Below the pieces are notes generated by a model. That model made no database searches, was not told the origin of the DNA, and was given only the letters and a program-made list of their open reading frames with translations. A stretch of 64,000 bases of DNA from an uncultured archaeon (GTDB lineage: Archaea; Thermoproteota; Bathyarchaeia; Bathyarchaeales; Bathycorpusculaceae): the NCBI GenBank assembly GCA_963782915.1, contig CAWALK010000015.1, positions 224,001 through 288,000 of the forward strand, read 5' to 3'. Both the position numbers and the translations under genes were made by a program. Numbering within the stretch: position 1 is the first letter of the stretch; each line of letters begins with the position of its first letter. This document shows, piece by piece, positions 34,871-61,761 of this stretch.

Positions 34871-34975
34871 AGTGGGCTAATCTGCTGGTAGGTCATAAGG
34901 TACCCGTTTCTACCCCTCTCTCTTCCAATAATTTTTCTGCCTTCTGGCCCATTCCACTTGGCAGATTAGCTCACT
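34871..34975 (+). ncRNA. Putative structured RNA, CU-loop hairpin family copy H1
   Basis: AGUGGGCUAAUCUGCU/GGCAGAUUAGCUCACU outer stem, GGUCAUAAGGUA/UGCCUUCUGGCC inner stem, loop CCCCUCUCUCUUCC. Confidence 0.6.
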
Positions 34976-35077
34976 CTAAATTCTATGCTCCCTGACATAT
35001 ATGGGCAGTCGAGCTAGGTATTGTTAGTACTGCTGGAAATAAATAGCCAGTACAGCTTACCAATTGATTGATGATGG

Positions 35078-35272
35078 ATGTTCAAGAGACCAAAGGGTAG
35101 CTTCAAGAAGCGTTTGACAGTAATTATTTTGTATACTATTCTTGTAGCCACCATCATGTTTTTCGCCTTCAACGACGCTGTCAATCGAATAGAATTCGGC
35201 GTCGTTATGGGCGCTTTATTGCTACTGTATCCGGCAGTTACGTTGATCTTCCAACGCTTCAAGAGAGATTGA
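35078..35272 (+). CDS. Small two-TM membrane protein
   Basis: 64 aa, basic N-terminus and two hydrophobic helices. Confidence 0.5.
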   Translation: MFKRPKGSFKKRLTVIILYTILVATIMFFAFNDAVNRIEFGVVMGALLLLYPAVTLIFQRFKRD

Positions 35273-35381
35273 ACCAAGCAACTTAGAGATTGTTTGGGAA
35301 GCTGCACTTGTAGGCTCATTGATGTAACAACGCAGGCTTAACTATCATATTGTGGCTAATGCCCAATAAAGAGGATTAAAA

Positions 35382-35645
35382 ATGGTGTCAGCAGTTGTAT
35401 TATTAAATACCGATTTAGACGCACAGGACGAAGTAGTAGATAACCTTAGACTCATAGATGGGGTTGAAGAAGCACATGCATTATACGGCGTCTATGACTT
35501 GTTAGTTAAAGTAAAAGCGAAAAATATTGACGAACTGAAAACCGTAACTAAGTCACGAATAAAGCAGGTAGCGGGCGTTACCAGCTCATTGACACTGGTA
35601 CTACATGACGGCGACAAAGAAATGCCCCATATAGGCTCGCCATAG
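35382..35645 (+). CDS. Stand-alone Lrp/AsnC ligand-binding (RAM) domain protein
   Basis: GVEEAHALYGVYDLLVKV...GVTSSLTL. Confidence 0.88.
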   Translation: MVSAVVLLNTDLDAQDEVVDNLRLIDGVEEAHALYGVYDLLVKVKAKNIDELKTVTKSRIKQVAGVTSSLTLVLHDGDKEMPHIGSP

Positions 35646-35710
35646 ACCATCATACAAACGATTCCTTCTAAAAATCGAGATTGTTTTATCGCCTTTAAGG
35701 ATCAAATTAT

Positions 35711-36058
35711 TTAATGCCGTTGCCCGAAGTCTTCATGGCGCTCTTTTTCTGTCGCAGGTATAAATTTCTCCGATCGGCCAGTTTCAGTCCTATTTTCCAC
35801 AGGCCTGTTTGTTGGTCCGGCAAATTTTTCTTTATAGTTACCTTCCGCTCTTTGTATGTCTTCATCTAACCTTTTTAGTTCTATATCGACCTGCTCATTT
35901 ACCTGTATAGTAGTCCATCGATCCTCCACTCTATCTTCAACACGTTCGGCCACTTCTTCGGCGACTCGTTCTGGAAGGCCTGCAGCCTCTAAGTCTTTCT
36001 TGACATCTTTGCAATCAAACTTTGACTCATTACCGGAACTTGAAATTATTTTTACCGT
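35711..36058 (-). CDS. Stand-alone ATP-cone-like protein (apparent ACG start)
   Basis: In-frame upstream extension VKIISSSGNESKFDCKDVKKDLEAAG...AEEVAERVE; GGAGGTGA 6 nt before ACG. Confidence 0.6.
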   Translation of the reverse strand, partial: TVKIISSSGNESKFDCKDVKKDLEAAGLPERVAEEVAERVEDRVEDRWTTIQVNEQVDIELKRLDEDIQRAEGNYKEKFAGPTNRPVENRTETGRSEKFIPATEKERHEDFGQRH

Positions 36059-36407
36059 AAAAAATCACCTCCAAACGAGACAAAATAAAAAACGGTTGGG
36101 TTTACCAATGCCAACCGTGTTTTTCTTCTTTCTTGGTCTTAACAAAGATGCTTAGCCCAATCGCGGTAATTGCAGCGCCTATGCCTGCGATTGCTAGATA
36201 TTTCTTATAATGATACAAAACAATCACCAAAATAAAAGGCAAGAAAATATCTAATAAGCATGTGTTGTTCACATTCTGAAGCATCTTTTTAAAAAAAAAT
36301 AAGGCACAATGCCACCACTAAATCAAAAGGCTGGACAGCGAAATTCTAAGACAGAATTTTGGAAAAAAATCATATTTTAAAAATAGTTGTGATTGGAAGA
36401 GAGAGAG

Positions 36408-36476
36408 AAAGTTGACTTGAACGCAAACAAAAGGAAACAGGAAGAGAGAGGGTTTGTTTACATTCAAGCTAACTTT
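36408..36476 (-). ncRNA. Putative structured RNA, CU-loop hairpin family copy H2
   Basis: 24-bp stem with G-U pairs on the minus strand; loop CCCUCUCUCUUCC; second CUCUCUCUCUUCC just 3' of the stem. Confidence 0.6.
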
Positions 36477-36567
36477 TTCGCTTAGACACAGTATATTACC
36501 CTTGAATCTTAAATAACGATGTGACTGCATCGATGCAACAACTTTTTTGGGAAAAGGGAAAAAGTAG

Positions 36568-36654
36568 GTTAAGCTGGCTTAGCCGTGTACTAACGTCGAT
36601 AAGGCAGAAGAGAGGGGAACGCTTATCTTTTGTTAGCAGCCAAACCTGCTCAAC
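36568..36654 (-). ncRNA. Putative structured RNA, CU-loop hairpin family copy H3
   Basis: GUUGAGCAGGUUUGGC/GCUAAGCCAGCUUAAC outer stem, CUAAC/GUUAG and GAUAAG/CUUAUC inner stems, loop CCCCUCUCUUCU. Confidence 0.55.
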
Positions 36655-37036
36655 TTGGGGTTGCTCTTAACAAACGTGTTACCTTTGAATTGGATATAAG
36701 GCAATGTTGTTACAGGATGTAGCAACAACCGCTAAAAAATCGCAATATTTCCTTTGAGCGTTAGAGTTATAATTGATCTTCGTGGAAAGGTTCACAATTA
36801 TAGATATTACGAATCCCTTTCAAGTTTCGTTATGTTATTGTCCTTTGCAGTCACATTTTCTTTTATTTGTTGTGGGTTCGAGGCACATATTAGGGGGTTA
36901 GGTTTGGATTTCATGGGTTAGTGCCTGCTTCTTTGATTTGTTAATTAGTGAATGCTGTGAGTATTTAAGAGCTATCACTAATTTGTTTTCAGATACGATA
37001 CGATTATTAATTGTGCTGTCAATCATAGCCGTCACA

Positions 37037-37156
37037 ATGTCACATGAAATTTACATTTGCCCGATTTGTAACAAGGAGCTCAAAGACCCAAGACAGTTAA
37101 GGGAGCACCGAATGACTGAACATAAAGGGCAATCAAGAAACAAAGTGAACCTTTAG
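37037..37156 (+). CDS. C2H2 zinc-finger micro-protein
   Basis: MSHEIYICPICNKELKDPRQLREHRMTEH: Cx2C-x12-Hx4H. Confidence 0.75.
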   Translation: MSHEIYICPICNKELKDPRQLREHRMTEHKGQSRNKVNL

Positions 37157-37266
37157 TAATTGCAGAAACCCCTCTTTTTCCGATGTAACAGTTTGTTGCT
37201 ACATAATGTTACAACAATGCCTTTAGTATCAGCATGCTAACACTAACTTCTGTATGTGTCGAAAAC

Positions 37267-37362
37267 GTTAGGCTGATATGGCTGAAAAGAAAAGAAGACC
37301 CCCTCTCTCTTCCGTTTGCTTCTACCTCTTCTTTTCGATTCACAGGGCCAGGTCAGCTTAAC
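37267..37362 (+). ncRNA. Putative structured RNA, CU-loop hairpin family copy H4
   Basis: GUUAGGCUGAUAUGGCU/GGCCAGGUCAGCUUAAC, GAAAAGAA/UUCUUUUC, AGAAG/CUUCU; loop CCCCCUCUCUCUUCCG. Confidence 0.6.
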
Positions 37363-37438
37363 ACTAATTTTTGGTTGCTTCTTATAAAGCGGTAACTTAA
37401 TATTTTTTAATAAGAACTAAAATCACTGAATTACAGCT

Positions 37439-37603
37439 TTGGAGATTTCTCAAATTAATAGGCCAGTTACTAAGTATAATTGTTGTGATTGCGGAAAAAG
37501 CTTAACTGCTCGGGCTAAGACCCCTGAGTGGAGAAAGATTCCAGCCGACCAGAAAAGATGTAGAGGCTGTTCTTTAAGATATAGAGCTTTGATGAGAATT
37601 TAA
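37439..37603 (+). CDS. 54-aa zinc-ribbon micro-protein (not in ORF track)
   Basis: TTG start; MEISQINRPVTKYNCCDCGKSLTARAKTPEWRKIPADQKRCRGCSLRYRALMRI* with CxxC...CxxC. Confidence 0.55.
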   Translation: MEISQINRPVTKYNCCDCGKSLTARAKTPEWRKIPADQKRCRGCSLRYRALMRI

Positions 37604-37652
37604 ACACAAAAGCTTAAGCATGCAAGCAACCAATAGCAGTCGATGATTTACC

Positions 37653-38051
37653 ATGCAGTTTGAGGGTGAATATTTCGGGGGCAACTTCCAATTAAAAGTT
37701 GATAAATCACTTCAAAAAACAAACGTACTGCTAAAAGTTCAGGAACAACTAAGCGTTTTTCAATCTATTGGGCCTTTAACCCATAATTATCAGGAAAAAG
37801 CAGCCATATCTTTTGATTATGGGGATATTGTTAAGATTGAGAATTTGCCCAGTGAAAGAATTGGTGCTTTGCGTTCTATGGTTCTTCCGGCTCCGGTTGC
37901 TGTTATGTTGCGTAAGAAGGAGATGTTTTTGAATGTGACGTTTAAGGATGGGATTGGGATGGAGCAGAATATTGTGTTTAAGGTTAAGCAGGCTGATGAA
38001 TGTTATAAAGCGATTTATGATAGAATAGCTGAGATTAGAGGGAAGAAATAG
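37653..38051 (+). CDS. Hypothetical protein (possible PH-like fold)
   Basis: 132-aa ORF, beta-rich with a C-terminal helix. Confidence 0.55.
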   Translation: MQFEGEYFGGNFQLKVDKSLQKTNVLLKVQEQLSVFQSIGPLTHNYQEKAAISFDYGDIVKIENLPSERIGALRSMVLPAPVAVMLRKKEMFLNVTFKDGIGMEQNIVFKVKQADECYKAIYDRIAEIRGKK

Positions 38052-38091
38052 TTTTTAGTCTGGAATTTCTTTGTTTTTGCTAAAGCTTTCT

Positions 38092-38265
38092 TTACTTGGC
38101 AAGGTCTTCGTTCGAAACAAGAAATACGGAGTACTGTTTTGCGCCTGATTTGTCAGCTTTGTTTTGATGGCCGTTTATGCATCTCATTGCGTATCTTGTT
38201 TTGGTTGTATTTTCCCAAATCTGTTCTGTTGGTCCACCGCATACTTGGCATTTACAATCAGTCAT
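38092..38265 (-). CDS. 57-aa CxxC...CxxxH zinc-finger micro-protein, paralog of 1047-1223
   Basis: MTDCKCQVCGGPTEQIWENTTKTRYAMRCINGHQNKADKSGAKQYSVFLVSNEDLAK*; GGTGA SD. Confidence 0.8.
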   Translation of the reverse strand: MTDCKCQVCGGPTEQIWENTTKTRYAMRCINGHQNKADKSGAKQYSVFLVSNEDLAK

Positions 38266-38315
38266 ATAGTATTCACCAAAAATCTATTTCTTAATTATTT
38301 ATGCATCGTCTCGGT

Positions 38316-38498
38316 TTAAGGTTTCTCGCCTGCTTTCGCTAAGAATGCCTGGATTAGTTTTTCGTCGTCATTTACTTGTTTGATGTCGTGTTTTCGTACT
38401 CGGCAAAGTAGCGTTCTATAGCCTTCGAGTTTATCGCCTGTTTCGATGTAGCGTTGAAGGATTTGTCGTTCTGCAGGCGTTAGGATGTAGTCTCGCAT
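38316..38498 (-). CDS. Small putative DNA-binding/repressor protein
   Basis: MRDYILTPAERQIL... transcribed divergently from the gene string starting at 38650. Confidence 0.55.
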   Translation of the reverse strand: MRDYILTPAERQILQRYIETGDKLEGYRTLLCRVRKHDIKQVNDDEKLIQAFLAKAGEKP

Positions 38499-38569
38499 TA
38501 TAGATTTCTCTCTATTGTATCTGTGGTTGACTTGCTATTTAATGTTTCTTTTTATTGCTAGACTGTTAA

Positions 38570-38622
38570 GCTACAATCATAGTAACGCTTAATAGATAGT
38601 TGTGTGTTACAGTGATTGTAGC
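38570..38622. promoter_or_regulatory. Inverted-repeat operator candidate between divergent genes
   Basis: GCTACAATCA-t-a-GTAAC ... GTTAC-a-g-TGATTGTAGC. Confidence 0.5.
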
Positions 38623-38649
38623 AATAGATTGAAACAAACGGTGAAATAA

Positions 38650-38988
38650 ATGATAAGCGCACAAACAATAACTCAGGAAAAGTTTACTCCACCCTTCAAA
38701 CGCCTAAACCAAAAAGAAGTCTTAGAATGCTTAGAACACGGCTGGACAGGCAGAGCCACCTTCATAAAAGCAGCTGAAGCTCCAAAGGAATCGGGGAAAT
38801 ATGCGCGGATGGCTTACAGTATGGGCAATCACCGCTCGTTTGTTAGTGCAATGGTTTTCCCATCTGAAGGAAACACCTATCGAATGGTTGATTACAGCAT
38901 AGTTGCTGCACTTGAAAAGAAGGGTTTAGTGAAGGTTTCTTTTCTTTCGGATTGTGAAGCTGCATTTCAACTCGTCAAGGAGGATTAA
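38650..38988 (+). CDS. Element hypothetical protein
   Basis: GGTGA SD; first gene of a co-oriented string. Confidence 0.65.
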   Translation: MISAQTITQEKFTPPFKRLNQKEVLECLEHGWTGRATFIKAAEAPKESGKYARMAYSMGNHRSFVSAMVFPSEGNTYRMVDYSIVAALEKKGLVKVSFLSDCEAAFQLVKED

Positions 38989-38991
38989 ACA

Positions 38992-39417
38992 TTGAACTCT
39001 TTTACGCCTTCAGTCGTGGCCCCGCTTGAGTCCTGGGATGACACAAGCGACGTTATAGTGTTCCTGATTGAACAGAAAGAGGAACTTCACATCAACCAAT
39101 ACGCTGATTTAGTCCTCGAACACCTCCCCGAACAGTACCATGGCAGCCGACGATTCGTAACTCCCGAAAACCAATCCGCACAACTCGAAGGCTACATAGC
39201 AGGCAAAGGCAAAATCCGTTTGGAATTCACCGCTGAATACCGGGATGATATTGTCGATGCTGAAACAGGTAACCAGATAGAAGGTTATAATGTCACTGTA
39301 ACTCGCAAATTCGTTAACGATTGGCGGTCTAAGCCTGAACTGTTTGTTTCCTATGTCGTGGCGGGTTCAGATCGAAGCGATTTTGCAGTAATCAGCGAGG
39401 TTAAAGCGGAGGCTTAA
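38992..39417 (+). CDS. Element hypothetical protein
   Basis: GGAGG SD; tightly packed. Confidence 0.6.
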   Translation: MNSFTPSVVAPLESWDDTSDVIVFLIEQKEELHINQYADLVLEHLPEQYHGSRRFVTPENQSAQLEGYIAGKGKIRLEFTAEYRDDIVDAETGNQIEGYNVTVTRKFVNDWRSKPELFVSYVVAGSDRSDFAVISEVKAEA

Positions 39418-39421
39418 AAAT

Positions 39422-39718
39422 ATGGCGAAATATACAGAACAACAAATCAACGATATCCTAAACCTCACAGGATGGCTCAACTCTCGAATCGATTGCTTCA
39501 AACTCTATGCGGTCCTAACCATCGGCGTAACAAACAACACCCGAGGACCTGGCGACTCATGGGAAATCACACAGAAAACCTACTCGGAGAAAGCTTTAGA
39601 AATCAAACTTGAAGACTTCGCCGACTGCACAAGCAAGAATGCTGTTAAAAAACGGTTCAAACAAGTAATGCAGAAAGCCGTTTCAGCGGCAATGTTCCCA
39701 GGCAATAAAATTTTTTGA
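39422..39718 (+). CDS. Element hypothetical protein
   Basis: GGAGG SD; tightly packed. Confidence 0.6.
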   Translation: MAKYTEQQINDILNLTGWLNSRIDCFKLYAVLTIGVTNNTRGPGDSWEITQKTYSEKALEIKLEDFADCTSKNAVKKRFKQVMQKAVSAAMFPGNKIF

Positions 39719-39763
39719 ATTATCCATCAGGAATTTAACAATAATTAAAAATGGTGAAGTAGA

Positions 39764-40339
39764 ATGAGTGAAAAACAAACCAATCTAAAAAATAAAAACT
39801 CAGCCCTAATAGGCTATCTTGAATGTGAATTAAAAGAAAGTAAAAGCCTCGAGGAATTCAAGGTTAAGTTCGCAGAAATCAAAGCCATCACTGAAGCAAG
39901 CGCCATTGCTGAAACAATCACCGCATCAGACGAAAAAGCAACCGCTGAGAAAATCGACTGGGGCGAATATGACAGCATCCTATCACGGAATGTATGCGAG
40001 AAAACTATGCAGATCATGAATGAAGTTGAAGCATTAAGTGATTTCTGGCTTCAAATGATGAGTCGATTCGTCACCAAAGAAGGCTCTGAGGAGTGTGGAA
40101 GACCGTTACTGAATGATGAGAAAGTGGCTTTGCACAGTCTCTTAACTAAAAATCGAGCCGGTCCCATCGGAAGCAATAGTGAGATGTCAGCGCAGAAACT
40201 GTACAATGCTACCCGGCGAAAACTGGGCTTAAGCGAAGAAACCTATGAAGCCTTAGCGGAAGCTGCAGAGAAAACAGGTGTGACATCCGAAAAACTGCTC
40301 CATAGTATCATCTGTGAGCGATTTAATGTTGACACCTAA
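39764..40339 (+). CDS. Element hypothetical protein with C-terminal RHH-like segment
   Basis: LSEETYEALAEAAEKTGVTSEKLLHSII resembles a ribbon-helix-helix. Confidence 0.55.
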   Translation: MSEKQTNLKNKNSALIGYLECELKESKSLEEFKVKFAEIKAITEASAIAETITASDEKATAEKIDWGEYDSILSRNVCEKTMQIMNEVEALSDFWLQMMSRFVTKEGSEECGRPLLNDEKVALHSLLTKNRAGPIGSNSEMSAQKLYNATRRKLGLSEETYEALAEAAEKTGVTSEKLLHSIICERFNVDT

Positions 40340-40380
40340 AGCGGAGAAGTTCTTATAATATTTCCCCTCTCTTTCTAAAA

Positions 40381-40569
40381 GTGACCTATATGGAAAAAGA
40401 ATCAACTCCAAAAACTGAGCCCGATATACTCTTCTGTGGCCTTATCTTTCAAGCAAACGAGGAAACATACAAACGAATCAAAGAGTATATCCTCAAAGAA
40501 ACCAATGCGAAACTAATAATCCAGAAGAAAGGCACTGAATACTTAACGGTCACTAAAACAGACAAATAA
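40381..40569 (+). CDS. Small element protein
   Basis: GLIFQANEETYKRIK; similar to HGIIFRGTQMDYARLL near 49325-49475 (-). Confidence 0.5.
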   Translation: MTYMEKESTPKTEPDILFCGLIFQANEETYKRIKEYILKETNAKLIIQKKGTEYLTVTKTDK

Positions 40570-40581
40570 GTGAGAAAATAA

Positions 40582-41007
40582 CTATTCAGAATTATCGTCA
40601 GCCACCTTTGACTTTTCCAGATTGAACATGAAAGGCATAAAATGAGTATTAAACTCGCAATCAGGCGCTTTGCATCTGACTCTTGCGCCTTCCTTGTTAT
40701 CCCAATTATAAATCAATGCTTCGCGTCCATGCTTGGGGCAAATTGTTCTATTGATTATCCCCCGCCTACCAATATCCAGCTTACAAATAGCAATGCCATG
40801 TCTGAGTTTCCGTTTTCCATATTTGATGATAAGACGCTGTTTCTCGGCAGGTGAAGCCGAATAGTAAGATACTGCTTCTTTGAGTTCAAAAGCGGTTAAG
40901 CTCTGTGAGGGGCGTCCATGTGCTTTTTTGGGGATAGGAATCGATAGAATATTTGAACCCATCAATTGTTGATCGGATAGAAAACTCTGGAGAATTGTTT
41001 GCTGCAT
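40582..41007 (-). CDS. Element hypothetical protein with Zn-binding motif
   Basis: CPKH...CKAPDC. Confidence 0.55.
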   Translation of the reverse strand: MQQTILQSFLSDQQLMGSNILSIPIPKKAHGRPSQSLTAFELKEAVSYYSASPAEKQRLIIKYGKRKLRHGIAICKLDIGRRGIINRTICPKHGREALIYNWDNKEGARVRCKAPDCEFNTHFMPFMFNLEKSKVADDNSE

Positions 41008-41019
41008 GATATTTTGGGC

Positions 41020-41445
41020 TTAAACTAAACTCACAGGCCAACCATCCAGAGATCGCCGATGTTTCTTGATTTGTCGCTCGCACTGCTTTAGGTAATCGTA
41101 TTCTTTTCTGTTAACAGCTACTTCGCCTCGGGCGAGTAGTTTGAAGCCTAAACTTTTTGCTTGCAGTTCGAGAGTCTGCAGGGTGTCATCTTTAATTTCA
41201 GTTGGACTGTAGCCTTCTCTTATGCTCTGAGATTCGAGCCAAGATTCAACGTTTGGGTAATCTCGCAGTTCTTCAAAGGCTGATAATAGGTCCCCGGTGT
41301 CACCGTAGAATAGGTTATACTGTTTGATGGCGCTGCAGATTTCAAAAACATTAAATTTGGTGGTGGTTTTGTGCCATGTTCCTCTTGATTGGAGGTGTTG
41401 CTTGATTTTTTGGTATTCTGGGGGTAATCTAAAAGAATGCTTCAC
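41020..41445 (-). CDS. Element hypothetical protein
   Basis: 141-aa ORF in a co-oriented string. Confidence 0.5.
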   Translation of the reverse strand: MKHSFRLPPEYQKIKQHLQSRGTWHKTTTKFNVFEICSAIKQYNLFYGDTGDLLSAFEELRDYPNVESWLESQSIREGYSPTEIKDDTLQTLELQAKSLGFKLLARGEVAVNRKEYDYLKQCERQIKKHRRSLDGWPVSLV

Positions 41446-41475
41446 AGATGTTTAGGATAAAAAGAAAAAGATTGT

Positions 41476-41859
41476 TTAAGGTTCGAAACGCTTAACGTCT
41501 TCTGGCCTTAGGGGACCTTTGCATATTACGCAGCATTTCTCGAAAACAGAGTACCGTGCTTTGTTCCGCTCTGCAACATTGACATTTTGGCATTTCTTTC
41601 TTGCCTCAATTATGCTCTTCAATGTTCTGATTTCACGCTGTTTTGTCTTGATTGATGCTTCAACCTTTGATTTCTCAGCGGCATAATCGAACTCTTGTTT
41701 TTCAAGAAAACTTAGAACAAACGGGTCGGTGGGTACTGGTTGGAGGTTTACTTGATTGATTTCTCTTTTTAGGTTTTCGATTTTTAGTTCGGTTGATCTA
41801 ACAAACTTTTCGCATTCCCTATATTTTTCGGGGATTTCTTCGTCAAACACTCTGGTCAT
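41476..41859 (-). CDS. Coiled-coil + Cys protein, paralog of 42428-42892
   Basis: ELKIENLK...FDYAAEK...CVIC. Confidence 0.6.
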   Translation of the reverse strand: MTRVFDEEIPEKYRECEKFVRSTELKIENLKREINQVNLQPVPTDPFVLSFLEKQEFDYAAEKSKVEASIKTKQREIRTLKSIIEARKKCQNVNVAERNKARYSVFEKCCVICKGPLRPEDVKRFEP

Positions 41860-41920
41860 AGTTGTTTCCTCTAACTGTTTTGGTGTTTTCCATTAAACCG
41901 AAATTTTCAAGTGACAATAT

Positions 41921-42169
41921 ATGAGCCTAAAAGAAGCCGTCAAAAAACAGTATGCAGAACTTGGGTTAGTTTTTAATGAGAAAGATTTCCCAGATGACAA
42001 CGAAGATCCACTTGCAGCGGTATTATCTAAAGAGAAAATTGATTGGTTGAATGTTGAATCTAAAAAAGCTGAAGCGGTTAATCAAATATCGAACGAATTC
42101 TATTTGCTTGCTGCAGTTAATAAGCAAAGAGAAGAAGCTGGATTACCGCCTCTTGTAACTTTAGAGTAA
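41921..42169 (+). CDS. Small protein, paralog of 42957-43169
   Basis: MSLKEAVKKQYAELGL. Confidence 0.6.
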   Translation: MSLKEAVKKQYAELGLVFNEKDFPDDNEDPLAAVLSKEKIDWLNVESKKAEAVNQISNEFYLLAAVNKQREEAGLPPLVTLE

Positions 42170-42427
42170 AAAATTGAAACAGTTTAAATCAGTGAGAAGG
42201 AGCCATAACTGTAATTATCCCACACTTGAAGGTATTCTCTAACTTCGATTTCTGTGTAACCAAGATTCTCCCATTCGGCTTTACGTTCATTTGCTATTTC
42301 GATGCTTGAAACCTTGCATCGTACTGGTTTACCATTCGGGTCTTTGGCCGCTAATCGGTAAAACATTTGTGTAGTCATGTTATTAGTCTCAAGAGATTTA
42401 GTGAAAAACAGAGAAAAGAGAGAAATT

Positions 42428-42892
42428 TTACTCTTTACGGTTTGCTGCTTTAGCACTTTTCAATTCAGCGGCTTTTTGTTCTCGTTGGGCTTTTTCCTGT
42501 TGTTTCTTGGCGATATCTGCTTCTTGTTCTGCGATTTCAGCGTAGAATGGCTTAAACTGGCATTTTTCGCAAGCAGCACCGGTTTCTTTTCCATGAGGTC
42601 CACGTTGTGCGGGATAATGTTGACTCCAACAATTTTTTAATTGAGCTATTTCAGAGCGGATGCTGCTGATTTCTATCTTAATTTTGTTGGCTCCTTCCGT
42701 TAACTCGGCGCGTTCTGCGTTGAAGTCAAAACCAAACTTTTTGTTTAAGTAATGTTTGATTACGTCTAAATCGGTGAAGACGTTTCCTTCTTTGTTGAGT
42801 TGATTTTCTAAATCATTGATTTTTAGCTCGAGTTGAGTTACTTTTCCTTGACATTGTTGACGTTTTTGATTTATTTTTTCGGTATCTATCAT
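42428..42892 (-). CDS. Coiled-coil + Cys protein, paralog of 41476-41859
   Basis: ELKINDLE...FDFNAER...CEKC. Confidence 0.6.
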   Translation of the reverse strand: MIDTEKINQKRQQCQGKVTQLELKINDLENQLNKEGNVFTDLDVIKHYLNKKFGFDFNAERAELTEGANKIKIEISSIRSEIAQLKNCWSQHYPAQRGPHGKETGAACEKCQFKPFYAEIAEQEADIAKKQQEKAQREQKAAELKSAKAANRKE

Positions 42893-42956
42893 AATGGTTC
42901 ACTGAATTATTTGGTGAATATTGGAATTAACCGAAAATTTTAAGGAAGAAACGCAT

Positions 42957-43169
42957 ATGAGTTTAGAAAGCGCAGTCGAGAAATGTCGTAAAGAATTAGG
43001 CATAACTAATACAGTAAATTTGATACCGCAGAAACGTAGTGTGTTGATTATTATTTATCTAAAACTGATATTGTGGTCAAAACTATTTTCAGGGATTAAT
43101 AACATTGGAAATCAAGCGGACCAAAATATTCTTTTGCAGGCTAAAATGAGATGGAAAAAGAACAAATAG
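42957..43169 (+). CDS. Small protein, paralog of 41921-42169 (3' part probably error-affected)
   Basis: MSLESAVEKCRKELGI. Confidence 0.5.
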   Translation: MSLESAVEKCRKELGITNTVNLIPQKRSVLIIIYLKLILWSKLFSGINNIGNQADQNILLQAKMRWKKNK

Positions 43170-43299
43170 GTTAAAATATCGATATAATATTTGGGTATAA
43201 GATAGTTTTGTTGGTGCAGGGTTATAATCTCTGAACACCATAGGAAGAACTAAATTGACAGATTAGAACAACGAGCATTCGACTTCATATACTTTTCGG

Positions 43300-43481
43300 A
43301 AAAAAAAAAAAAATATATATAATATTATTATATATATATATTTATATATATATTATATTATTTTATTATATTATATTATATTATTATATTATATTATATT
43401 ATTTTATTATATTATATTATATTATTTTATTATATTATATTATATTATTTTATTATATTATATTATTTTATTTTATTTTAT
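43300..43481. repeat. Pure A/T low-complexity tract (poly-A, then TA/TTATA-like units)
   Basis: About 180 bp with no G or C. Confidence 0.9.
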
Positions 43482-43487
43482 GTTTGA

Positions 43488-43871
43488 TTATTCATTGAGT
43501 AGTTGCTGCCAAGTTAACTCTTCCACAACAACAAAACCCACAAACCCCAAAATAGCAGCAATCGGATCATCTCCAATCTGTGCGCATGGAATGCTATGAA
43601 CTTTATAGTAACTGTGCTCGTCACTGTCTGGTTTTGTTGCTGGATCGTTGCTCCAGGCACGTAACGCAGCTTTAGTTAAGTGTCCATGTATCAATTTTGC
43701 TGAATAGAGAAATTTGCTCAGTGATTCTGTAAGTTCTTGCTGAGAGGGCGAGTTTGGCACTTGCACAGTTTTACCGATGTTTGCACGGTAGTTTATTGTG
43801 TTTCCGTATTCCCATCCGTTTCTTTGAGCGTAAATGTAATAGTCTGCTTCAATGCCGATGTAGTTCACCAT
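43488..43871 (-). CDS. Element protein with C-terminal hydrophobic segment (possibly truncated by the AT tract)
   Basis: GAGG SD; DPIAAILGFVGFVVV. Confidence 0.45.
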   Translation of the reverse strand: MVNYIGIEADYYIYAQRNGWEYGNTINYRANIGKTVQVPNSPSQQELTESLSKFLYSAKLIHGHLTKAALRAWSNDPATKPDSDEHSYYKVHSIPCAQIGDDPIAAILGFVGFVVVEELTWQQLLNE

Positions 43872-44609
43872 TTGATTGCCTCTTTGGTGGATTCTTAAAA
43901 AGAAGGTTGAATGGATGGTAAAGCTTCAAGGAGCGGGTCGGTTTCTTTGGTTTAAAGATTGGTTGACACATAAGTCCTGTTTTAAAAGGGTCAACTACCC
44001 AGAATATGCTTCTGCGTTAAATAACCAAACAAGCCGCCGACAGTAGTCAAAACCAATACCGTTATGGATATACCCTCTAATTGGGGTAAGCCATTCAGGA
44101 TAAACGTTTGCTGTTATAACTAACACAGTTTCTTTCGCATTTGCCGGTGCAACCTTCGAAGTCAGCGACATATTTACCGTTACGCAGTTCCAAATCTTTT
44201 AGAGAGGTATTGAGATTTGATAGGGGCTTTGTGTGTAGGAATTGTCTGTTTGTATCTCTGTAAATATAGTAGAGTTGGTTGACAGAAACCTTCTGATACA
44301 GACTATCGACGCCGATGAGAGTGTTTTTCTATTAAGTAACTGAACAGTTTGCTTACAGTGTTGAAGCTGCACCAGAAGCGATCGCTTCTAAGATGTGGTA
44401 AGCCAATCGGGATGAATAAGTCCAGCGATAACAGACACAGTTTCGACTGCATTTATTTTGGCAACCATTGAAAGTCAGCGTATGGGCCAGGATGGTTTTG
44501 CAGGTTTTCTAAGGATTGTGTGATTCTTTGAGGGGTTGGTTGATTTGACATATTTAAGCCTCAACTGAGTCGGTCTTATCTTACAAGTATTGAAGATAGA
44601 AGCCAAAAT

Positions 44610-45390
44610 TCAAGTGCAGTGTGTTACCGCTTTTGAGCCATAAATGATGCAGTTCTTCCCCAGAGCGCCTATGATGCCTGCATTGAACCGCTGGATTAAC
44701 CAGATTCTATAACCTAAACGTGCTGCATTATAACAGTAGCCGAGGTCTTCCCCTAACTGGATGCCTTTTCCTCTGAATTGGAAAGTTTCAAATCTTAAAC
44801 GCTCATCAAGGACCGTTTTCTGGCTGAGACATAAACAGGCACTGCATACATAACCCGACTGTGATAACATATCAGGAAGAGAATTGGCAAAACTCAAAGA
44901 GGCAATCATATTGTTTATGAGTACAAAATTGCCGTAGCCCACGGCTAACTGTTCAACTTTTGAACCGTCTGCGAATCAGTAATCCTATAGGGACAACAAC
45001 TATACCCGATACTATGTCTTTACCGCTGCTTACAAGGGCCTTTAATCCGTCTATTGGAAGCGAGACGTCGCTATCAACAAACACAGCAAAATCATAACCT
45101 TTAGCTTGTTCGAGCAGAAGGTTACGGTGGATGGCGAGTTCCTCAAAACGGGTTTCTGCTATGATATATTTTTGTGCCTTGGATGATTGTGTAGGGTAAA
45201 CTGAAATGTGTCTTTAGGAAAAGAATGTAGTTTTCTTTGACTCTGGGTTAGCTGTGAAGATACAATATATTTTTTCTTTTGATGGTTTGTTTTTGGAGTG
45301 CTCAAGATAGAGGATTAATGCGGTTTCTATGGCGTTATTGATTGGTGTGGGTGGTAGAGGTGTTAATATGGTGATTGAGGGTTCAGTATG
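44610..45390 (-). CDS. GT-A (family 2-like) glycosyltransferase, heavily frameshifted
   Basis: Manual reading gives HRNLLLEQAKGYDFAVFVDSDV (DxD)...GKDIVSGI and LGEDLGYCYNAARLGYRIW. Confidence 0.6.
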
Positions 45391-51013: not shown

Positions 51014-51114
51014 GTATTATTCCCTCTGCTTGAGTCGGTTTTATTATGTTACTCGTGCCTACCACATTTTCTTTTATTTTTCCGTTAGTCTTAATGGTGA
51101 ATAACGCAAAGCGA

Positions 51115-51199: not shown

Positions 51200-51223
51200 C
51201 AGCCAAACAAAGGTGAATAAAAA

Positions 51224-51571: not shown

Positions 51572-51649
51572 TCGGCTGCCCAAATAGGGCCATCTAATAT
51601 AGCATTTGCTCATTCAAAAAATGCGATAAACCAAAATTTGAAATTGTAA

Positions 51650-51726
51650 TGGTGCGGTAACCGGGATTTGAACCCGGGTCCTAGACTTGGCAAGCCTATG
51701 TACTGACCAAGCTGTACTATTACCGC
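51650..51726 (-). tRNA. tRNA-Gly(GCC), CCA encoded
   Basis: GCGGTAATAGTACAGCTTGGTCAGTACATAGGCTTGCCAAGTCTAGGACCCGGGTTCAAATCCCGGTTACCGCACCA folds as a cloverleaf. Confidence 0.95.
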
Positions 51727-55046: not shown

Positions 55047-56308
55047 GCTTTGTCCCTAAATTGAAAAGCTTATAACTAGAAAAGGGGTCTCATGTCAAAT
55101 TAGAGACGTCCACGCTTAGGAGGTGAGTCCTAGCGAGACAAGATGAGCATGAAACCCTTGAAACCCTATTTAGAAACGTAGACTTAAGGTTTGCTAACAA
55201 TCAAATAGAGCGATGCTACCACCAAAGCGGTCCAGGCAGACCACCCAGAAATCCCATAGGCATCTTTAGAGCGTTTTTGATCATGCGAATGAAAGGTGTA
55301 CGCAGCTTAAGAGAAATGACCCGCATACTCGACACTGACAAAAGAATGAGAAAGATCTGTTTAATCAAAGAAAATCAAAAAGGCTACACACGAAGCGTAA
55401 TGAGCCGGTTTTCCAAACGAGTAGGCCAAGACAACCTCAACAAAATAATCGATCAAAAAGTAATCGATCTACTCAAATCTCAGCAAACCACTGAAGTCGA
55501 TGTGGTTTTGGATGCCTCTTTCATTAAAGCCTGGAGCATACGTCATCCATCCGATAATCAGATTGGTTTTTCCGATATTGAGGCTAGAGTTGGCAGAGCT
55601 GGTCGATCATTTGCATTGGGCTATAAAATGCATCTATCAATTGATCACAAAACTATGCTTCCTCTTTCAAACGTTTTTGCCTCGGCAAACCAAAACGAAA
55701 AGAAACATTCACTAACTCTACTTGAAAAAGCCAAGGGACTTCTCAAAGTCTGCGAAGCAAAGGTTAGAAGTGTAGTGGCTGATAGTCAATACAGTGATGC
55801 TAAGCTTAGGTGTGCGGTGGAGATGGCGACTATTCCATACCCGGCAAATCAAATGAAGGGTGTAGAGGGTGTTTTGAGGGTTGATAAGAAGTTTAGGACT
55901 TATGGGTCTTTGGAGCAAAAGATGGAATATCATAAGAGGCCTCCTGTTGAAGCAGTCAACAGTTTCCTTAAGACACAGTTTAGTATGGCAAACAATAAAG
56001 TCAGAGGCTTAGCTCAGGTGACGTTTTATGCATTGTGCAGTATTTTATGCCTTGTACTTAACAGGGAGGCGGCTCAAAGAATTGGTCGGTATGACAAAGC
56101 AGTGTCCCCTACTTACTTCAACACGTAATTAACGACACAAACTACGAATAACACCAGCGAAACTCCAGATTACAGAGTCATTGTTCGGTTGATGTTTACT
56201 AATTGTTTTTTTGAGGCCAAAACAGCCGCTAAAGGAACTTATGATTTTGGATAAAAATGACCTTTCTAAGGGGTATTTCCTTTTTTAAGGGTATTTTCGG
56301 GACAAGCC
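55047..56308 (+). mobile_element. IS5/IS1182-like insertion sequence
   Basis: Terminal IRs GCTTTGTCCCTAAA / TTTTCGGGACAAGCC; AGCGCGC direct repeat at 55039-55045 and 56309-56315; DDE transposase inside. Confidence 0.8.
55143..56128 (+). CDS. DDE transposase (DUF772-like N-terminus + DDE_Tnp_1-like), 5' frameshift
   Basis: GPGRPP...SLRE, VLDAS, GYKMHL, VADSQY, Y.KR..VE..NS.LK. Confidence 0.85.
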
Positions 56309-56438: not shown

Positions 56439-56466
56439 AAAGAACGAAAACAAAAAAGAAAAGAGG

Positions 56467-59237: not shown

Positions 59238-59358
59238 ATGTGGGGTGTGGCGAGTTTTAATTTTCCACAAGACTGTTTGGGGATTGCGTTGTATTTTGCT
59301 GTTGCATTGCTTCTCTGCGCCTGTTTCGGTGTGGGATAGGCGTTTTTCTCCACACGCC
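59238..59358 (-). repeat. ~120-bp repeat, copy B
   Basis: Reverse complement of 56319-56438. Confidence 0.9.
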
Positions 59359-59565
59359 CTGCATGCTTCTATGTTGAAACCGCCGAGGTGTGGAAGTGAA
59401 GGCATGTTAAGCTTGCTTTTAGTTTTTACGTTAGAAATAATCTCGTGCTCGCAAAGCTAAAAACGAGCTATATACCGTTTTTTAAATCGGCCGAAAAATG
59501 GCTATAGTTAGACGCCACCAGAGTTGAAATATAGAGCGTCAAACTCGCTCCCGCCCGCCACCAAC

Positions 59566-59988
59566 TCATAGAAGCTCTATAGGGTAGCCTTTTGGCTGGA
59601 GTTTTTTGTACTGAGTCTGCTCATCCGCGGTAATGCAAACGGTTTTTTTGTATTCCGCGATGGCAACGGGCAGGGCGTCGTAGAACGTTATTTTTCCGTC
59701 GTAGGCTATTTCGCCAGTTCTTGCTGTGAGGGCTTCAGTCAGATGGGTAACGCCCATATGGAGGTTGAATAGTTGCGCTAACGCGTTTTTCCATTTCTGG
59801 GCATCGTAATCGGGTTTATATCGCAGGGCGTTGCCGACTTCGCAGAATAAGATTTCAGAGACCGTTAACTCAACTGACCCTTGAGTGTACGCATCTAGGA
59901 GTTTAAGAGCTTCATCTGATTTTGTCTCTATGCTAAACCATTTGACCACTATGGAGGCGTCCAGTATTATTTGGCGGCATCTCGCCAT
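59566..59988 (-). CDS. vapC: PIN-domain toxin VapC
   Basis: ILDASIVVKW, EVGNAL, ITFYDA, ITAD. Confidence 0.88.
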   Translation of the reverse strand: MARCRQIILDASIVVKWFSIETKSDEALKLLDAYTQGSVELTVSEILFCEVGNALRYKPDYDAQKWKNALAQLFNLHMGVTHLTEALTARTGEIAYDGKITFYDALPVAIAEYKKTVCITADEQTQYKKLQPKGYPIELL

Positions 59989-60188
59989 TTTCGTATTTCT
60001 CCCGCACCGTTCCATTCTGCGTTGTTTTCCATTCGAAGGTTTTTGATTGCCTCTGCTGCGCATTGAATTTCTTCTTTTCGTGCGGCGTCTTCGAAGGCTT
60101 TTCTTGCCACTTCGCTCCAGTTGACGCTTTTGCAGTGCTTCATGCGGTCTTTTAGCTCTTCTGGAACTCTTACTGTCACGTTACTCAT
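59967..60188 (-). CDS. vapB: RHH antitoxin (VapB-like)
   Basis: VTVRVPEELKDRM...VNWSEVARKA...EIRKWRD; overlaps vapC. Confidence 0.82.
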   Translation of the reverse strand: MSNVTVRVPEELKDRMKHCKSVNWSEVARKAFEDAARKEEIQCAAEAIKNLRMENNAEWNGAGEIRKWRDAAK

Positions 60189-60628
60189 ACACATTACCTT
60201 TTGCACATGTTAGGTGCACATATTATTTGTAAGTACCGAGTTAAAAGGTTTCCATTTCAAAAATAGAATTACGAGCTTCGCCAAATAACCGCGTCTTGAT
60301 AGGGGATAGGGTTCAATCCTTCCCGTCCGCCACGTTCCACATTCGATTTTTTGATAGTAACGGTCGAAATGACAGTTTACTCTGAAATGTGATTAGAAAG
60401 GTTACTGTATAATTTGAATTATCTCAGGGTACCCCTGATAGGAAGGGTTTAGGTCCCATGTTAGCCGCATAAACCGCCAACGCAATACTAAAAAAGACAT
60501 CATCATGAGCGTAATAAGGCTTTAAGGAATTTCATAAAATAAACGCTCATTAAAAATACCATTTTTAATCGCTTGTTTACAGAAACCTTAAACTTTCGTT
60601 TATCCTAGAATTACCTCTGGAATTCGAT

Positions 60629-61296
60629 ATGGAAAGATCAGCTATTATTCTTGCAGGTGGAATGTCAAAAGAATTTGACGGCGACAAAGCGGTCTTAGAA
60701 TTAGAAGGTAAGCCCCTATTGAGCTATGTTGTTGAGTCAGTAAAGGGCATCGCTGAAGAAGTCATAGTTGTTACTGATTCCCAAGGATATTGCTGATGCA
60801 TATGCGAAGGTTGTGCCGTCAGCAAAGTTTGTCGTTAACCAGGACCCATCGGGCGATTTATTAGTCTGAGGTTATTGCGGGTTTTGAGGCTGCTCAAGGT
60901 GAATACTCGCTTATTCTGCCGTCAGGTAGCCCTTTTGTTTCGCATGAACTCGTGACTTTGCTTTTTGAATGCTGTATTGGCAAAGCGGCTGTTGTTCCAC
61001 GGTGGACTAATCAGGAGATTGAGCCTTTGCATGCTGTTTACGATACAAAGATGGCGTTGGAGGCAGCTAAAGCGTTGTTGGCAGAGGGCGGATCGGATAT
61101 GGTTGAGTTGGTTGAGAGGCTCAGGGGCGTTCGTTACCTGTCGACTATGGTGATTGAGCAGTTGGATCCCGAGTTTAGGTCGTTTTTTACGGTGACGTCT
61201 CCTGTGGCTCTTAAGAAGGCTTTAGTTATGTCTAAGATGTCGAAATCTAAGCCTAAGTCGAAGTCGAAGGGGCATAAAACTAAATATCCAATATAA
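60629..61296 (+). CDS. mobA: Molybdenum cofactor guanylyltransferase-like protein (frameshifted)
   Basis: Manual reading MERSAIILAGGMSKEFDGDKAVLELEGKPLL; IEPLHAVY; DPEFRSFF. Confidence 0.75.
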
Positions 61297-61448
61297 CCCC
61301 ATATTTCTTGGGTAAAGACCCTCTAGGTTTATGCATAGATTAACTATTTTGAGCCTTTTATTAGCGGTTAGTCGGTTGTTGCTGTATCGAAGCTACAACA
61401 TCGCTTAATATGGCACCTAAGCCATAGGTGACTCGCAAGGCACCAGAT

Positions 61449-61616
61449 ATGCTAAAACAAGTTTTCCGATGTCCAATCTGCAGAAAAAGCATAACCAACC
61501 CCGAACAATTAAGGCTCCACCGAATAAGCAGACACAGAGGAACAGTCTGTGGCGACAACTGGTTAGCGCCCCGAAAAGTTGTAGTTGTAACCGTGCAGCC
61601 ACATGATTATTTATGA
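61449..61616 (+). CDS. C2H2 zinc-finger micro-protein
   Basis: FRCPICRKSITNPEQLRLHRISRH: Cx2C-x12-Hx4H; similar to 37037-37156. Confidence 0.72.
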   Translation: MLKQVFRCPICRKSITNPEQLRLHRISRHRGTVCGDNWLAPRKVVVVTVQPHDYL

Positions 61617-61683
61617 TTCAACAGGACCTATGTTGTAATCGCGTAGGATGTGATAATATCCAAAAGCGTCAGGCGAACCAACA

Positions 61684-61761
61684 GTTAGTTGAGGCACAAG
61701 CAAAGAAGTGTTTTCCCTCTCCCTCTCTCTTCCGTATACTTTCGTTTGTGCCCCAGCTAAC
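61684..61761 (+). ncRNA. Putative structured leader RNA of TFS gene, CU-loop hairpin family copy H6
   Basis: GUUAGUUGAGGCACAAGC/GUUUGUGCCCCAGCUAAC; AAGUGU/AUACUU; loop CCCUCUCCCUCUCUCUUCCG. Confidence 0.62.

Follow-up and report, generated by a model that had tools for sequence, protein, structure and literature searches.

A predicted family of small hairpin RNAs in one genus of soil archaea (Bathyarchaeia), with a loop antisense to the leaders of secreted-protein genes

The window, i.e., the whole 64,000-nucleotide stretch of DNA that we analysed, harbours six hairpins with a CU loop. H1 to H4 lie in a region (34.8-38.3 kb) where small genes and hairpins form a mosaic; their paralogues, 68-83% identical, occur in another order on other contigs. 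H5 and H6 each precede a gene for the transcript cleavage factor TFS. Folded as RNA, H1 (34871-34975, plus strand) has a minimum free energy (MFE) of -36.6 kcal/mol (z = -5.45), H2 (36408-36476, minus strand) of -23.0 kcal/mol (z = -7.80), H3 (36568-36654, minus strand) of -32.5 kcal/mol (z = -4.84), H4 (37267-37362, plus strand) of -33.3 kcal/mol (z = -3.96), H5 (51115-51199, plus strand) of -33.7 kcal/mol (z = -8.84) and H6 (61684-61761, plus strand) of -27.9 kcal/mol (z = -6.33). This confirms all six hairpins where the original prediction had placed them, with z-scores from -4.0 to -8.8 and, for every one, no equal or better fold among 200 dinucleotide shuffles. The two "weaker copies" proposed at 37154-37201 (z = -0.85; 33/200 shuffles equally stable) and 45507-45539 (z = -1.54; 20/200) are unsupported. 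The RNA fold of the CU strand beats that of the opposite strand in 6/6 hairpins, by 3.6 to 11.1 kcal/mol, and the strand bias noted earlier (non-Watson-Crick pairs mostly G-U on the strand carrying the CU loop) is real.

As for the stems, which had been described as largely unrelated, they fall into two homologous types: H2, H5 and H6 form one, and H1, H3 and H4 another, with 57% mean column identity. The covariance model of the short type (R1) recovers H2 (36405-36480; 65.2 bits, E = 1.7e-17), H5 (feature 51111-51203, match 51115-51198; 53.6 bits), which has a variant CU loop, and H6 (feature 61672-61774, match 61677-61767; 61.5 bits), in which the CU loop is extended. That of the long type (R2) recovers H1 (match 34868-34989; 64.5 bits), with a paralogue on contig C25, H3 (36554-36657; 87.8 bits), with a variant loop, and H4 (37264-37376; 94.1 bits), with a paralogue on C19.

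The stems covary, as expected if pairing is conserved over sequence. In a MAFFT alignment of the short type that was not fitted to structure, 79.5% of cells are paired (30-46% in slid controls) and 21 of 26 pairs are altered on both sides, a value reached in 0/500 shuffles. The model-fitted alignment of 45 distinct copies is 86.5% paired, with 84 double-change cells, and in the outer stem of the long type the paired fraction is 88.9% for 9 copies and 92.0% for 39. G.U cells exceed A.C cells by 60 to 28 in one count and 117 to 35 in another; like the covariation counts, these come from related sequences. In the long-type outer stem, G.U is the most frequent pair at 5 of the 17 positions. Covariation, the G.U excess and the promoter-like and T-run flanks described below support the proposal of a single-stranded, probably RNA, element, and point to the CU strand as the one transcribed. 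The hairpins very probably constitute a structured RNA family, and there is no Rfam match, in keeping with the initial failure to recognise a known family.

The loop is far more constant than the helix that carries it, 13 nt being invariant across subfamilies whose stems are only 50-60% identical, with the order of bases strictly preserved. The window contains six copies of its 9-nt core, a number that none of 100 shuffles attains (mean 0.26). Of the 12 exact copies of the 13-mer in the 3.28-Mb genome, four fall within the window; 11 of the 12 occupy a strong hairpin's loop and one is in a truncated copy. When up to three mismatches are allowed, the 13-mer shows no clear enrichment in the window (18 matches; mean 9.87, with 3/100 shuffles reaching 18). 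The sixth 9-mer match in the window (2667-2675, minus strand) lies outside any hairpin loop. Many short-type RNAs repeat the loop motif in their tail. The genome contains approximately 16-17 CU-loop copies in total. In the long type, no more than 12 of the 39 distinct copies have a CU-like loop, which implies that this RNA must serve another, loop-independent function as well.

The family appears to belong to a single genus. R1 matches 101 of 120 and R2 48 of 61 genomes of the same genus. Beyond it, the class sample contributes 146 genomes, which yield only two borderline matches in total; none of the 10 from other genera of the family matches. The position of H6 is syntenic in relatives, and one subtype, at eight loci, immediately follows the stop codon that ends an ORF of ~90-105 aa.

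The majority of copies stand alone, each behind a promoter-like block of its own; the promoter, start and end of the transcripts are predictions from sequence. In H1, this block (34813-34832, plus strand) consists of a conserved hexamer and an A/T-rich TATA-like box and is conserved with the paralogues on contigs C25 and C18. H2 is preceded by an upstream repeat element, a conserved 10-mer and a TATA-like box (36500-36541, minus strand), which are conserved in 4/4 short-type paralogues and in relatives. An inverted-repeat element and a TATA-like box precede H3 (36692-36731, minus strand), conserved in the four H3-like paralogues and in relatives, and likewise H4 (37191-37230, plus strand). The blocks of H5 and H6 are at 51062-51081 and 61578-61623 (both plus strand). 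A promoter-like regular expression, composed after the sequences had been seen, matches upstream of 41/45 short-type and 30/38 long-type copies at clustered distances, against a background of 0.014 per 120 nt. The short-type transcript would start at the base of the helix. Downstream, a T-run occupies a fixed place in 35/38 long-type copies, 4-6 nt past the foot of the hairpin, as exemplified by the T5 runs of H3 (4-6 nt beyond the foot) and H4 (37368-37372). The 3' tail of H2 (36376-36407, minus strand) contains a second CU box (36395-36407), which pairs in part with the RNA's purine-rich 5' end, and then a T-run.

Two of the four TFS genes have a hairpin as 5' leader. H5 ends 20 nt upstream of the start codon of the first (51224-51571, plus strand; Pfam Zn_ribbon_TFIIS, E = 2e-17), whose product retains the acidic DE pair, and H6 lies upstream of a paralogue (61809-62162, plus strand; Zn_ribbon_TFIIS, E = 9.4e-15). 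In the four TFS-leader copies, pairing of the loop with its own ribosome-binding region does not exceed that with 386 background regions: fractions of 0.77, 0.59, 0.32 and 0.19 of these pair at least as well. The reading favoured below therefore does not account for what the leader copies do.

A candidate for the purine-rich RNA target that had been postulated was found in this genome. Over 17-18 nt, the loop and its 3' flank are matched exactly, as reverse complement, by the 5' leaders of four genes. These genes, one of which encodes a GH5 cellulase, have promoter, leader and signal peptide in common, and the leader block is present in 4/4 genes of this genome with that signal peptide. When the antisense of a short-type loop of this genome is aligned with the four leaders, the 17-18 identical bases are contiguous; over four loops and four leaders, 11 columns are invariant, and complementarity extends to bases beyond the pyrimidine tract. 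Among 126 9-mers of the same composition, the one complementary to the loop core ranks first for placement near starts, defined as 2-12 nt upstream of ORFs no shorter than 100 aa, with 10 sites against a mean of 1.83, although four of the 10 are paralogues and hence not independent; the runners-up are likewise loop complements. The window itself contains a candidate target (2667-3021, plus strand), in which a loop-complementary purine tract ends 7 nt (2667-2675) or 5 nt (2667-2677) before an ORF (2683-3021) whose product matches no Pfam family.

The block of the four leaders is conserved ahead of homologues throughout the genus. With at most one mismatch allowed, a 17-nt leader pattern is found in 51 of the 120 genomes, while its reversed control gives three sites in all. 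A sample of 30 sites includes 16 situated 0-5 nt upstream of a long ORF, and all 16 ORFs encode homologues of the leader-set proteins of genome G000 (25-73% amino-acid identity, in one case over 40 residues only). The leader block is the sole invariant stretch among 20 anchored 5' regions. Since the pattern is found in 51 genomes and the RNA in 101, these leaders cannot be its only target. Moreover, generic purine-pyrimidine complementarity is cheap, since the reversed loop pairs almost as well with ribosome-binding regions as the true loop (mean -9.0 against -9.55 kcal/mol).

Could the loop be read by a protein instead? An invariant pyrimidine loop on a variable helix might be what a single protein of the KH, RRM or zinc-finger type recognises in the RNA, the 5'-leader and 3'-end copies being regulated targets and the stand-alone RNAs decoys, in a system that would operate like iron-responsive elements or CsrA sites. 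Iron-responsive elements, bound by IRP, present a fixed 6-nt loop on a covarying stem in 5' leaders, 3' ends and elsewhere. The hairpins share this arrangement, but their loop is 13-15 nt long and finds its exact antisense in mRNA leaders, a match over 17-18 nt that protein binding leaves unexplained. An invariant loop of 13 nt might serve just as well for binding a protein. In favour of this are its preserved order on diverging stems, its doubling in many short-type RNAs, the lack of support for cis pairing, and its occurrence in three contexts (stand-alone units, the 5' leaders of 2/4 TFS genes and, at eight loci, directly after a stop codon). Yet no protein is consistently linked: a gene for a small C2H2 zinc finger, weakly matching a dsRNA-binding finger in Pfam (E = 9e-4), lies directly upstream of a hairpin at 3 of its 9 matches in G000 and in 4/29 loci of relatives, but of those 29 zinc-finger loci none contains a short-type RNA and only four contain one of the long type. 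Binding of CU-rich RNA by archaeal NusA found no confirmation in the parts of the literature consulted. Overall, we consider a protein-binding module unlikely.

Less likely still is that the hairpins are purely local structures, protecting or terminating RNA ends or acting as attenuators before TFS, with no trans role and a loop conserved by descent only; descent alone does not hold 13 nt invariant on stems so diverged. A start at the base of the short-type helix, the T-run just past the long-type foot, the subtype 3' of a stop codon and the ORFs close behind H5 and H6 would all suit such elements, whereas the prevalence of stand-alone units and the complementary conserved leader do not. Archaeal termination at T-runs requires no hairpin. 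Its efficacy has been linked to the U-tract and aCPSF1 (PMC8716108). Finally, the hairpins resemble integron attC sites, also reported from Archaea (PMC9668308), in being imperfect hairpins between small genes with pairing conserved over sequence. Their feet recall the two attC core boxes, and the reordered mosaic at 34.8-38.3 kb would fit recombination sites or MITE/REP-like repeats that shuffle nearby small genes. However, the boxes stand in inverse order to those of attC, hairpins occur on both strands within 2.5 kb, and no tyrosine recombinase lies near any copy, the only PF00589 matches in the genome being three weak ones on other contigs or far away. Copies are also few and old, with 68-83% identity between paralogues, positions are syntenic across species, the conserved G.U pairs would become A.C mismatches on the other strand, and the conserved loop and the promoter-like and T-run flanks suit transcription units. 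We therefore reject attC sites or MITEs as their identity, and a DNA-level role is largely refuted and highly improbable.

The reading that we favour, and hold to be somewhat more likely than not, is that the hairpins specify trans-acting antisense small RNAs that mask ribosome-binding regions. There are bacterial parallels. RepG of Helicobacter pylori has a pyrimidine-rich hairpin loop. This trans-encoded small RNA is described as pairing through its loop with an mRNA leader, thereby setting the level of translation (PMC8295292). The predicted RNAs would likewise expose a pyrimidine-rich loop to a purine tract in mRNA leaders, but RepG is single-copy, unrelated in sequence and without Rfam match here, and its target is, in that account, a variable G-repeat rather than a fixed mixed G/A block. 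The archaeal RNAs are multi-copy, have far longer helices and are also found as leaders and 3' ends. Cuckoo/CcsR (alpha-r14) and RoxS/RsaE, also bacterial and often multi-copy, use conserved C/U-rich loop motifs to pair with several ribosome-binding regions. The present family resembles them in copy number and loop conservation, but their motifs resemble an anti-Shine-Dalgarno sequence, whereas the loop here matches a non-canonical purine block that is not the complement of the 16S 3' end; their Rfam models find no match within 34700-37500 even at E = 1. In archaea, base-pairing small RNAs such as sRNA162 of Methanosarcina mazei are likewise reported to act in trans on mRNAs, at or near the translation start (PMC3510493; PMC4152357). 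Their lineage, sequence and fold are unrelated, and their action was shown by experiment, whereas the family here is predicted. Our literature search found no described small-RNA family in Bathyarchaeia.

On this antisense reading, the six hairpins would be small-RNA genes, in two cases 5' leaders, each unit apparently having a promoter of its own that drives transcription of the CU strand and is of an unusual but conserved type (upstream repeat or inverted-repeat element, conserved hexamer, TATA-like box). The RNA, ending at a T-run in most copies, would be essentially a single long imperfect helix of 24-30 bp that keeps a purine-free loop of 13-15 nt open. That loop would act as an antisense seed for purine-rich stretches found where the ribosome would bind in a few mRNAs, most clearly the four signal-peptide genes, whose leaders are roughly 20-25 nt long. 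To judge from complementarity, the loop on balance probably works by pairing with these leaders. Should the two RNAs meet, the effect would likely be repression, since pairing would cover nearly the whole leader and block translation initiation. What is novel is a loop that, with its 3' flank, is the exact antisense of the short 5' leaders of four genes. Through this match, the hairpins probably control the amounts in which the secreted proteins encoded by these genes, including one of the GH5 cellulase family, are made.

All six hairpins of the window that carry a pyrimidine (CU) terminal loop, H1 to H6, fold as the original prediction had described them. As RNA, they have minimum free energies between -23 and -37 kcal/mol; the z-scores, from H1 to H6, are -5.45, -7.80, -4.84, -3.96, -8.84 and -6.33, and none of 200 dinucleotide shuffles is as stable for any of them. 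Two further stretches put forward as weaker copies are no better than shuffles (z = -0.85 and -1.54) and were dropped. The 9-nt core of the loop motif is found at six sites in the window, against a shuffle mean of 0.26, and the exact 13-mer motif has 12 occurrences in the source genome (G000), four of them in the window. G000 is a 3.28-Mb assembly of 25 contigs (C1 to C25), and the window is C15:224001-288000. Of the 12 13-mers, 11 are found in strong hairpins, within the loop, and the other is in a truncated copy. Every folded copy presents the CU motif in its loop, so that the putative seed is kept single-stranded by conserved structure.

As for the stems, which had been thought largely unrelated in sequence, they instead sort the copies into types. 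The short type (H2, H5 and H6, with further copies on contigs C9 and C20, one of them at C20:377739-377820) measures ~65-90 nt. The long type (H1, H3 and H4) measures ~90-105 nt and consists of a 17-bp outer stem, a 4-8-nt bulge in the 3' arm and an inner stem. A third subtype sits directly 3' of the stop codon of a ~90-105-aa ORF (C15:3552-3635, C17 and six loci of relatives). Most copies are stand-alone units. One arrangement recurs as a module, in which a long-type hairpin, a promoter-like block and a short-type hairpin follow one another (window 36395-36740, C9 and C20), and in many relatives the long- and short-type pair is spaced 150-260 nt apart in model-match coordinates. A 16-codon ORF lies inside some short-type hairpins; we do not regard the region as coding because the start codon is missing from other copies.

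The family is confined almost entirely to the genus of the source organism, within the Bathycorpusculaceae. The exact 13-mer is present in 18 of 24 other genomes of the genus and in 1 of 16 genomes from other genera of the order, and the reversed 13-mer, used as a control, is found nowhere in the genus. As the original prediction had proposed, covariance models were built and run on Bathyarchaeia genomes: R1 from 23 short-type copies (26 bp) and R2 from nine long-type copies. On its own genome, R1 recovers all known copies and reveals no hidden large family. Within the genus, at E ≤ 0.001, it finds matches in 101 of 120 genomes, including 64 of the 73 of high quality. It finds none in 10 genomes from other genera of the family and, in the class sample with the genus set aside (146 genomes), only two borderline matches (E ~7e-4). 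R2 matches 48 of 61 genus genomes. Its hairpin defines a conserved RNA of ~105 nt, exemplified by window 36554-36657 (-), 37264-37376 (+) and 34868-34989 (+) and by loci L077 to L099. Several long-type members of G000 carry the CU loop, and the end loop is not CU-rich in most relatives; since a CU-like loop is seen in only 12 of 39 distinct copies, the long-type RNA is a conserved family in its own right.

No Rfam family matches these hairpins. At gathering scores, an Rfam 15 search of the whole window returned only one tRNA (51653-51726), bearing out the earlier view that the hairpins belong to no recognized family, and a permissive search of 34700-37500, at E up to 10, gave five chance-level matches, all far under gathering scores. 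A search of the literature on small RNAs or hairpins in Bathyarchaeota found no relevant description. Judged by sequence comparison, the hairpins are a real, conserved and uncatalogued structured-RNA family in one Bathyarchaeia genus, with a specific predicted target.

The substitution pattern in the stems indicates that the copies act at the RNA rather than the DNA level, as had been supposed from the conservation of pairing. In a MAFFT alignment of the short type that was not structure-fitted, 79.5% of cells are paired and double-sided changes occur at 21 of 26 pairs; on none of five covariation measures does any of 500 shuffles come up to these values, and pairing falls to 30-46% when the partner is slid by 1-3 columns. 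RNAalifold returned only nine pairs on this alignment, with the outer stem out of register, and the register was then set by hand. When 45 distinct copies are aligned to the model, 86.5% of cells are paired and 84 cells show double changes. The outer stem of the long type is paired in 88.9% of cells across nine copies and 92.0% across 39, G·U being the commonest pair at 5 of its 17 positions, which would be mismatches on the opposite strand. With the register fixed, there are more G·U than A·C cells (60 to 28 and 117 to 35), and the strand carrying the CU loop is the more stable one in all six window hairpins; since the sequences are mutually related, these covariation and strand-asymmetry counts are descriptive and not probabilities.

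The flanks of the copies resemble those of independent transcription units. Upstream lies a conserved block formed by a repeat or inverted-repeat element, a conserved hexamer and an A/T-rich TATA-like box. A promoter-like regular expression, composed after the sequences had been seen, matches upstream of 41 of 45 short-type copies (22-37 or 54-68 nt before the model start). Among the 38 long-type copies, 30 have a match, 36-55 nt upstream; in the genome at large, the rate is 0.014 matches per 120 nt. In the commonest short type, the TATA-like box ends ~25 nt before the helix base, and therefore the RNA would begin at the helix. Downstream, 36 of 38 long-type copies are followed by a T-run; in 35 of them it consists of four or more T and begins 4-6 nt past the foot. 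Such a run is found within ~45 nt in 33 of 45 short-type copies. Judged by sequence, the hairpins would thus have a promoter and a terminator of their own. In a search of sequencing runs for sampled words of the region, no RNA run was listed, and six DNA runs contained at most 0.16 of those words. The tRNA genes of G000 use a different, canonical box pair, which sets the hairpin units apart as a promoter class of their own. A conserved 10-mer of the hairpin promoters occurs at 21 genome sites (~6 expected), and protein-coding genes also have it, a few bases ahead of their TATA-like boxes, for example at window 36847 (+). These sites may represent a separate promoter class or regulon.

A distinct promoter-like repeat, at window ~29654 (+), C1:61015 and C12:46841 among others, combines a TATA-like box, an immediate G-rich run and a conserved block ~6 nt further on. 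It comes in two types, often in tandem, with ~217 loose matches in G000. A 14-nt pattern of it has 36 sites in G000 and 30 in G055, another genome of the genus, with 0-4 in 10 other sampled genus genomes and 0-3 in the rest of the class, so that it looks like a species-group-specific proliferated element. We rejected it as the target of the loop because its abundance is limited to these two genomes, whereas the RNA is present in 101 of 120.

The hairpins are neither integron attC sites nor MITEs, and both readings were rejected. In integrons, attC sites have their core boxes ordered R''...R', with conserved triplets beside the inner helix. The box order is inverse in all copies, whose triplets lie at the outer helix ends; only three weak PF00589 matches were found, none near a copy, and no integrase. 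Strands are moreover mixed, H1 and H4 being on the plus and H2 and H3 on the minus strand, which does not fit an attC array. Integrons have been reported in Archaea (PMC9668308). A MITE or REP-type repeat, the former named beforehand as an outcome that would sink the proposal, would come as numerous, almost identical copies with terminal repeats and target duplications in non-syntenic places; it is contradicted by the small number of loci (R1 matches ~13 and R2 11 in the 3.28-Mb genome), by the divergence of the paralogues (68-83% identical) and by the synteny of H6 in relatives; the flanks were also read for target duplications.

Two of the window hairpins stand in front of genes for the transcript cleavage factor TFS. 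The distance to the start codon is 20 nt from the end of H5 and 35 nt from that of H6. G000 has four TFS genes, two of which carry a hairpin leader, and both encoded proteins keep the catalytic acidic pair. H6 is syntenic: three relatives retain its upstream gene and two the TFS gene; in the other relatives, the hairpin persists without TFS. Small C2H2 zinc-finger genes lie directly upstream of H4 (window 37037-37156, +), of H6 (window 61455-61544, +) and of the copy on C25 (C25:48-155). They share a ~40-aa core with a weak Pfam match to a dsRNA-binding finger (E = 9e-4), and the family has nine matches in G000 and is found in 43 of 61 genus genomes. We rejected these genes as a fixed partner: in relatives, a long-type RNA lies within 1.5 kb at 4 of 29 loci and a short-type RNA at none of 29.

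Several other features of the neighborhoods were recorded. Window 34800-38300 is a mosaic of hairpins and small genes (an AsnC-type ligand domain, a zinc finger, small membrane proteins and a 54-aa zinc ribbon), paralogues of which, 68-83% identical, are found in different order on C9, C18, C19, C20 and C25. A conserved 46-aa zinc-ribbon gene lies 3' of the short-type RNA in many relatives (loci L018, L036, L056, L059, L064, L067, L070 and L071) and appears leaderless, with a TATA-like box ~27 nt before its start codon; in G000 it is at C20:370900-371037 (-), 6.7 kb from the nearest hairpin copy. Window ~38000-51700, a run of ORFs without Pfam families that includes a D5-type primase/helicase (46375-47859) and ends beside the tRNA gene on the minus strand at 51653-51726, is probably an integrated element, in which no integrase was recognized. 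A DDE transposase gene is present at window 55277-56128 (+; Pfam DDE_Tnp_1, E = 2.5e-11).

The original prediction had also proposed that the loop might be presented to a purine-rich RNA target, and candidate targets were found. The complement of the 9-mer loop core has 32 genome sites, 17 of which are the hairpins and CU boxes themselves. Ten of the other 15 precede, by 2-12 nt, the start codon of an ORF that is 100 aa or longer. This count tops the ranking of all 126 same-composition 9-mers, whose mean is 1.83, and those placed next are loop complements too. Four of these ten genes (C1:164621-165751, C19:161183-162148, C23:137207-138370 and C18:82318-82830) have only their 5' end in common, namely the promoter region, the leader and a ~45-aa signal peptide. 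Their mature parts are unrelated, comprising a GH5 cellulase-family domain in one (Pfam E = 1.6e-18), Pro/Thr-rich proteins and others. The shared 5' end looks like a cassette that has been joined to various secreted proteins. The other six sites precede genes for an MscS channel, a SAM synthetase and a thioredoxin, two unknown ORFs and the ORF at window 2683-3021.

Complementarity extends beyond the pyrimidine tract. The antisense of a short-type loop of G000 is identical to the four leaders over 17-18 contiguous bases, and an alignment of four loops with the four leaders has 11 invariant columns. Allowing at most one mismatch, the 17-nt leader pattern is found in 51 of 120 genus genomes, the reversed control giving three sites in total. 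In a sample of 30 sites, a long ORF starts 0-5 nt after 16 of them, and all 16 ORFs are homologous to G000 proteins with this leader (25-73% amino-acid identity, one over 40 residues only); about five more sites correspond to hairpin loops read on the other strand. The leader block is the sole invariant stretch across 20 anchored 5' regions, and a TATA-like box ends ~26 nt upstream, so that the leader would be only ~20-25 nt long. The predicted target mRNAs would thus share a conserved complementary site at their ribosome-binding region.

We infer from this complementarity that the family consists of trans-acting antisense small RNAs, the loop of which would pair with the leader mRNAs, mask their ribosome-binding stretch and so repress them. 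Several observations speak against such masking. The RNA is present in more genomes than the leader pattern, and generic purine-pyrimidine pairing is cheap, since the reversed loop does nearly as well on average. Moreover, the loops at the TFS leaders pair with their own ribosome-binding regions no better than background: among 386 background sites, the share with equal or better pairing is 0.77, 0.59, 0.32 and 0.19 for the four leader copies, which gives no support to a cis-acting leader that masks its own ribosome-binding site. A protein-binding role of the loop, the other option originally envisaged, is a less likely alternative; archaeal NusA may bind CU-rich RNA, which we do not count as evidence here.

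If the antisense reading is taken as a whole, it would amount to a type of post-transcriptional regulon that has yet to be reported from Archaea, in which multi-copy long-helix small RNAs with an operator-like promoter class use one invariant pyrimidine loop to silence a promoter-leader-signal-peptide cassette of diverse secreted proteins, including a GH5 glycoside hydrolase, with the same module in two of four TFS leaders. We put this full picture forward tentatively and consider it rather unlikely to hold in every part. The Cuckoo and RoxS groups are bacterial pyrimidine-loop small RNAs that are functionally close. By function, the closest systems are such bacterial RNAs, RepG among them, together with small RNAs of archaea, of which sRNA162 is an example; the label "base-pairing small RNA with a pyrimidine seed loop" denotes a functional kind here and not a homology family. 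RepG is a bacterial small RNA (PMC8295292) and sRNA162 an archaeal one (PMC3510493).

Two covariance models result from the analysis, both for families that Rfam lacks. A concrete candidate pair of RNA and target also emerges, testable in vitro without culturing the organism: on one side the small RNAs, present in most genomes of a single genus, and on the other the conserved ~20-25-nt leader. Bathyarchaeia are abundant, uncultured archaea that degrade plant and sediment polymers, and we know of nothing reported on RNA-level gene control in them; to our knowledge, few multi-copy small-RNA regulons are well defined in Archaea, a small set that this one would enlarge. The predicted leader precedes genes with a common signal peptide, one of which encodes a cellulase-family enzyme, and promoter, leader and signal peptide can travel jointly as one cassette. 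If the proposed regulon is real, the production of secreted proteins would be tied to the state of the transcription machinery.
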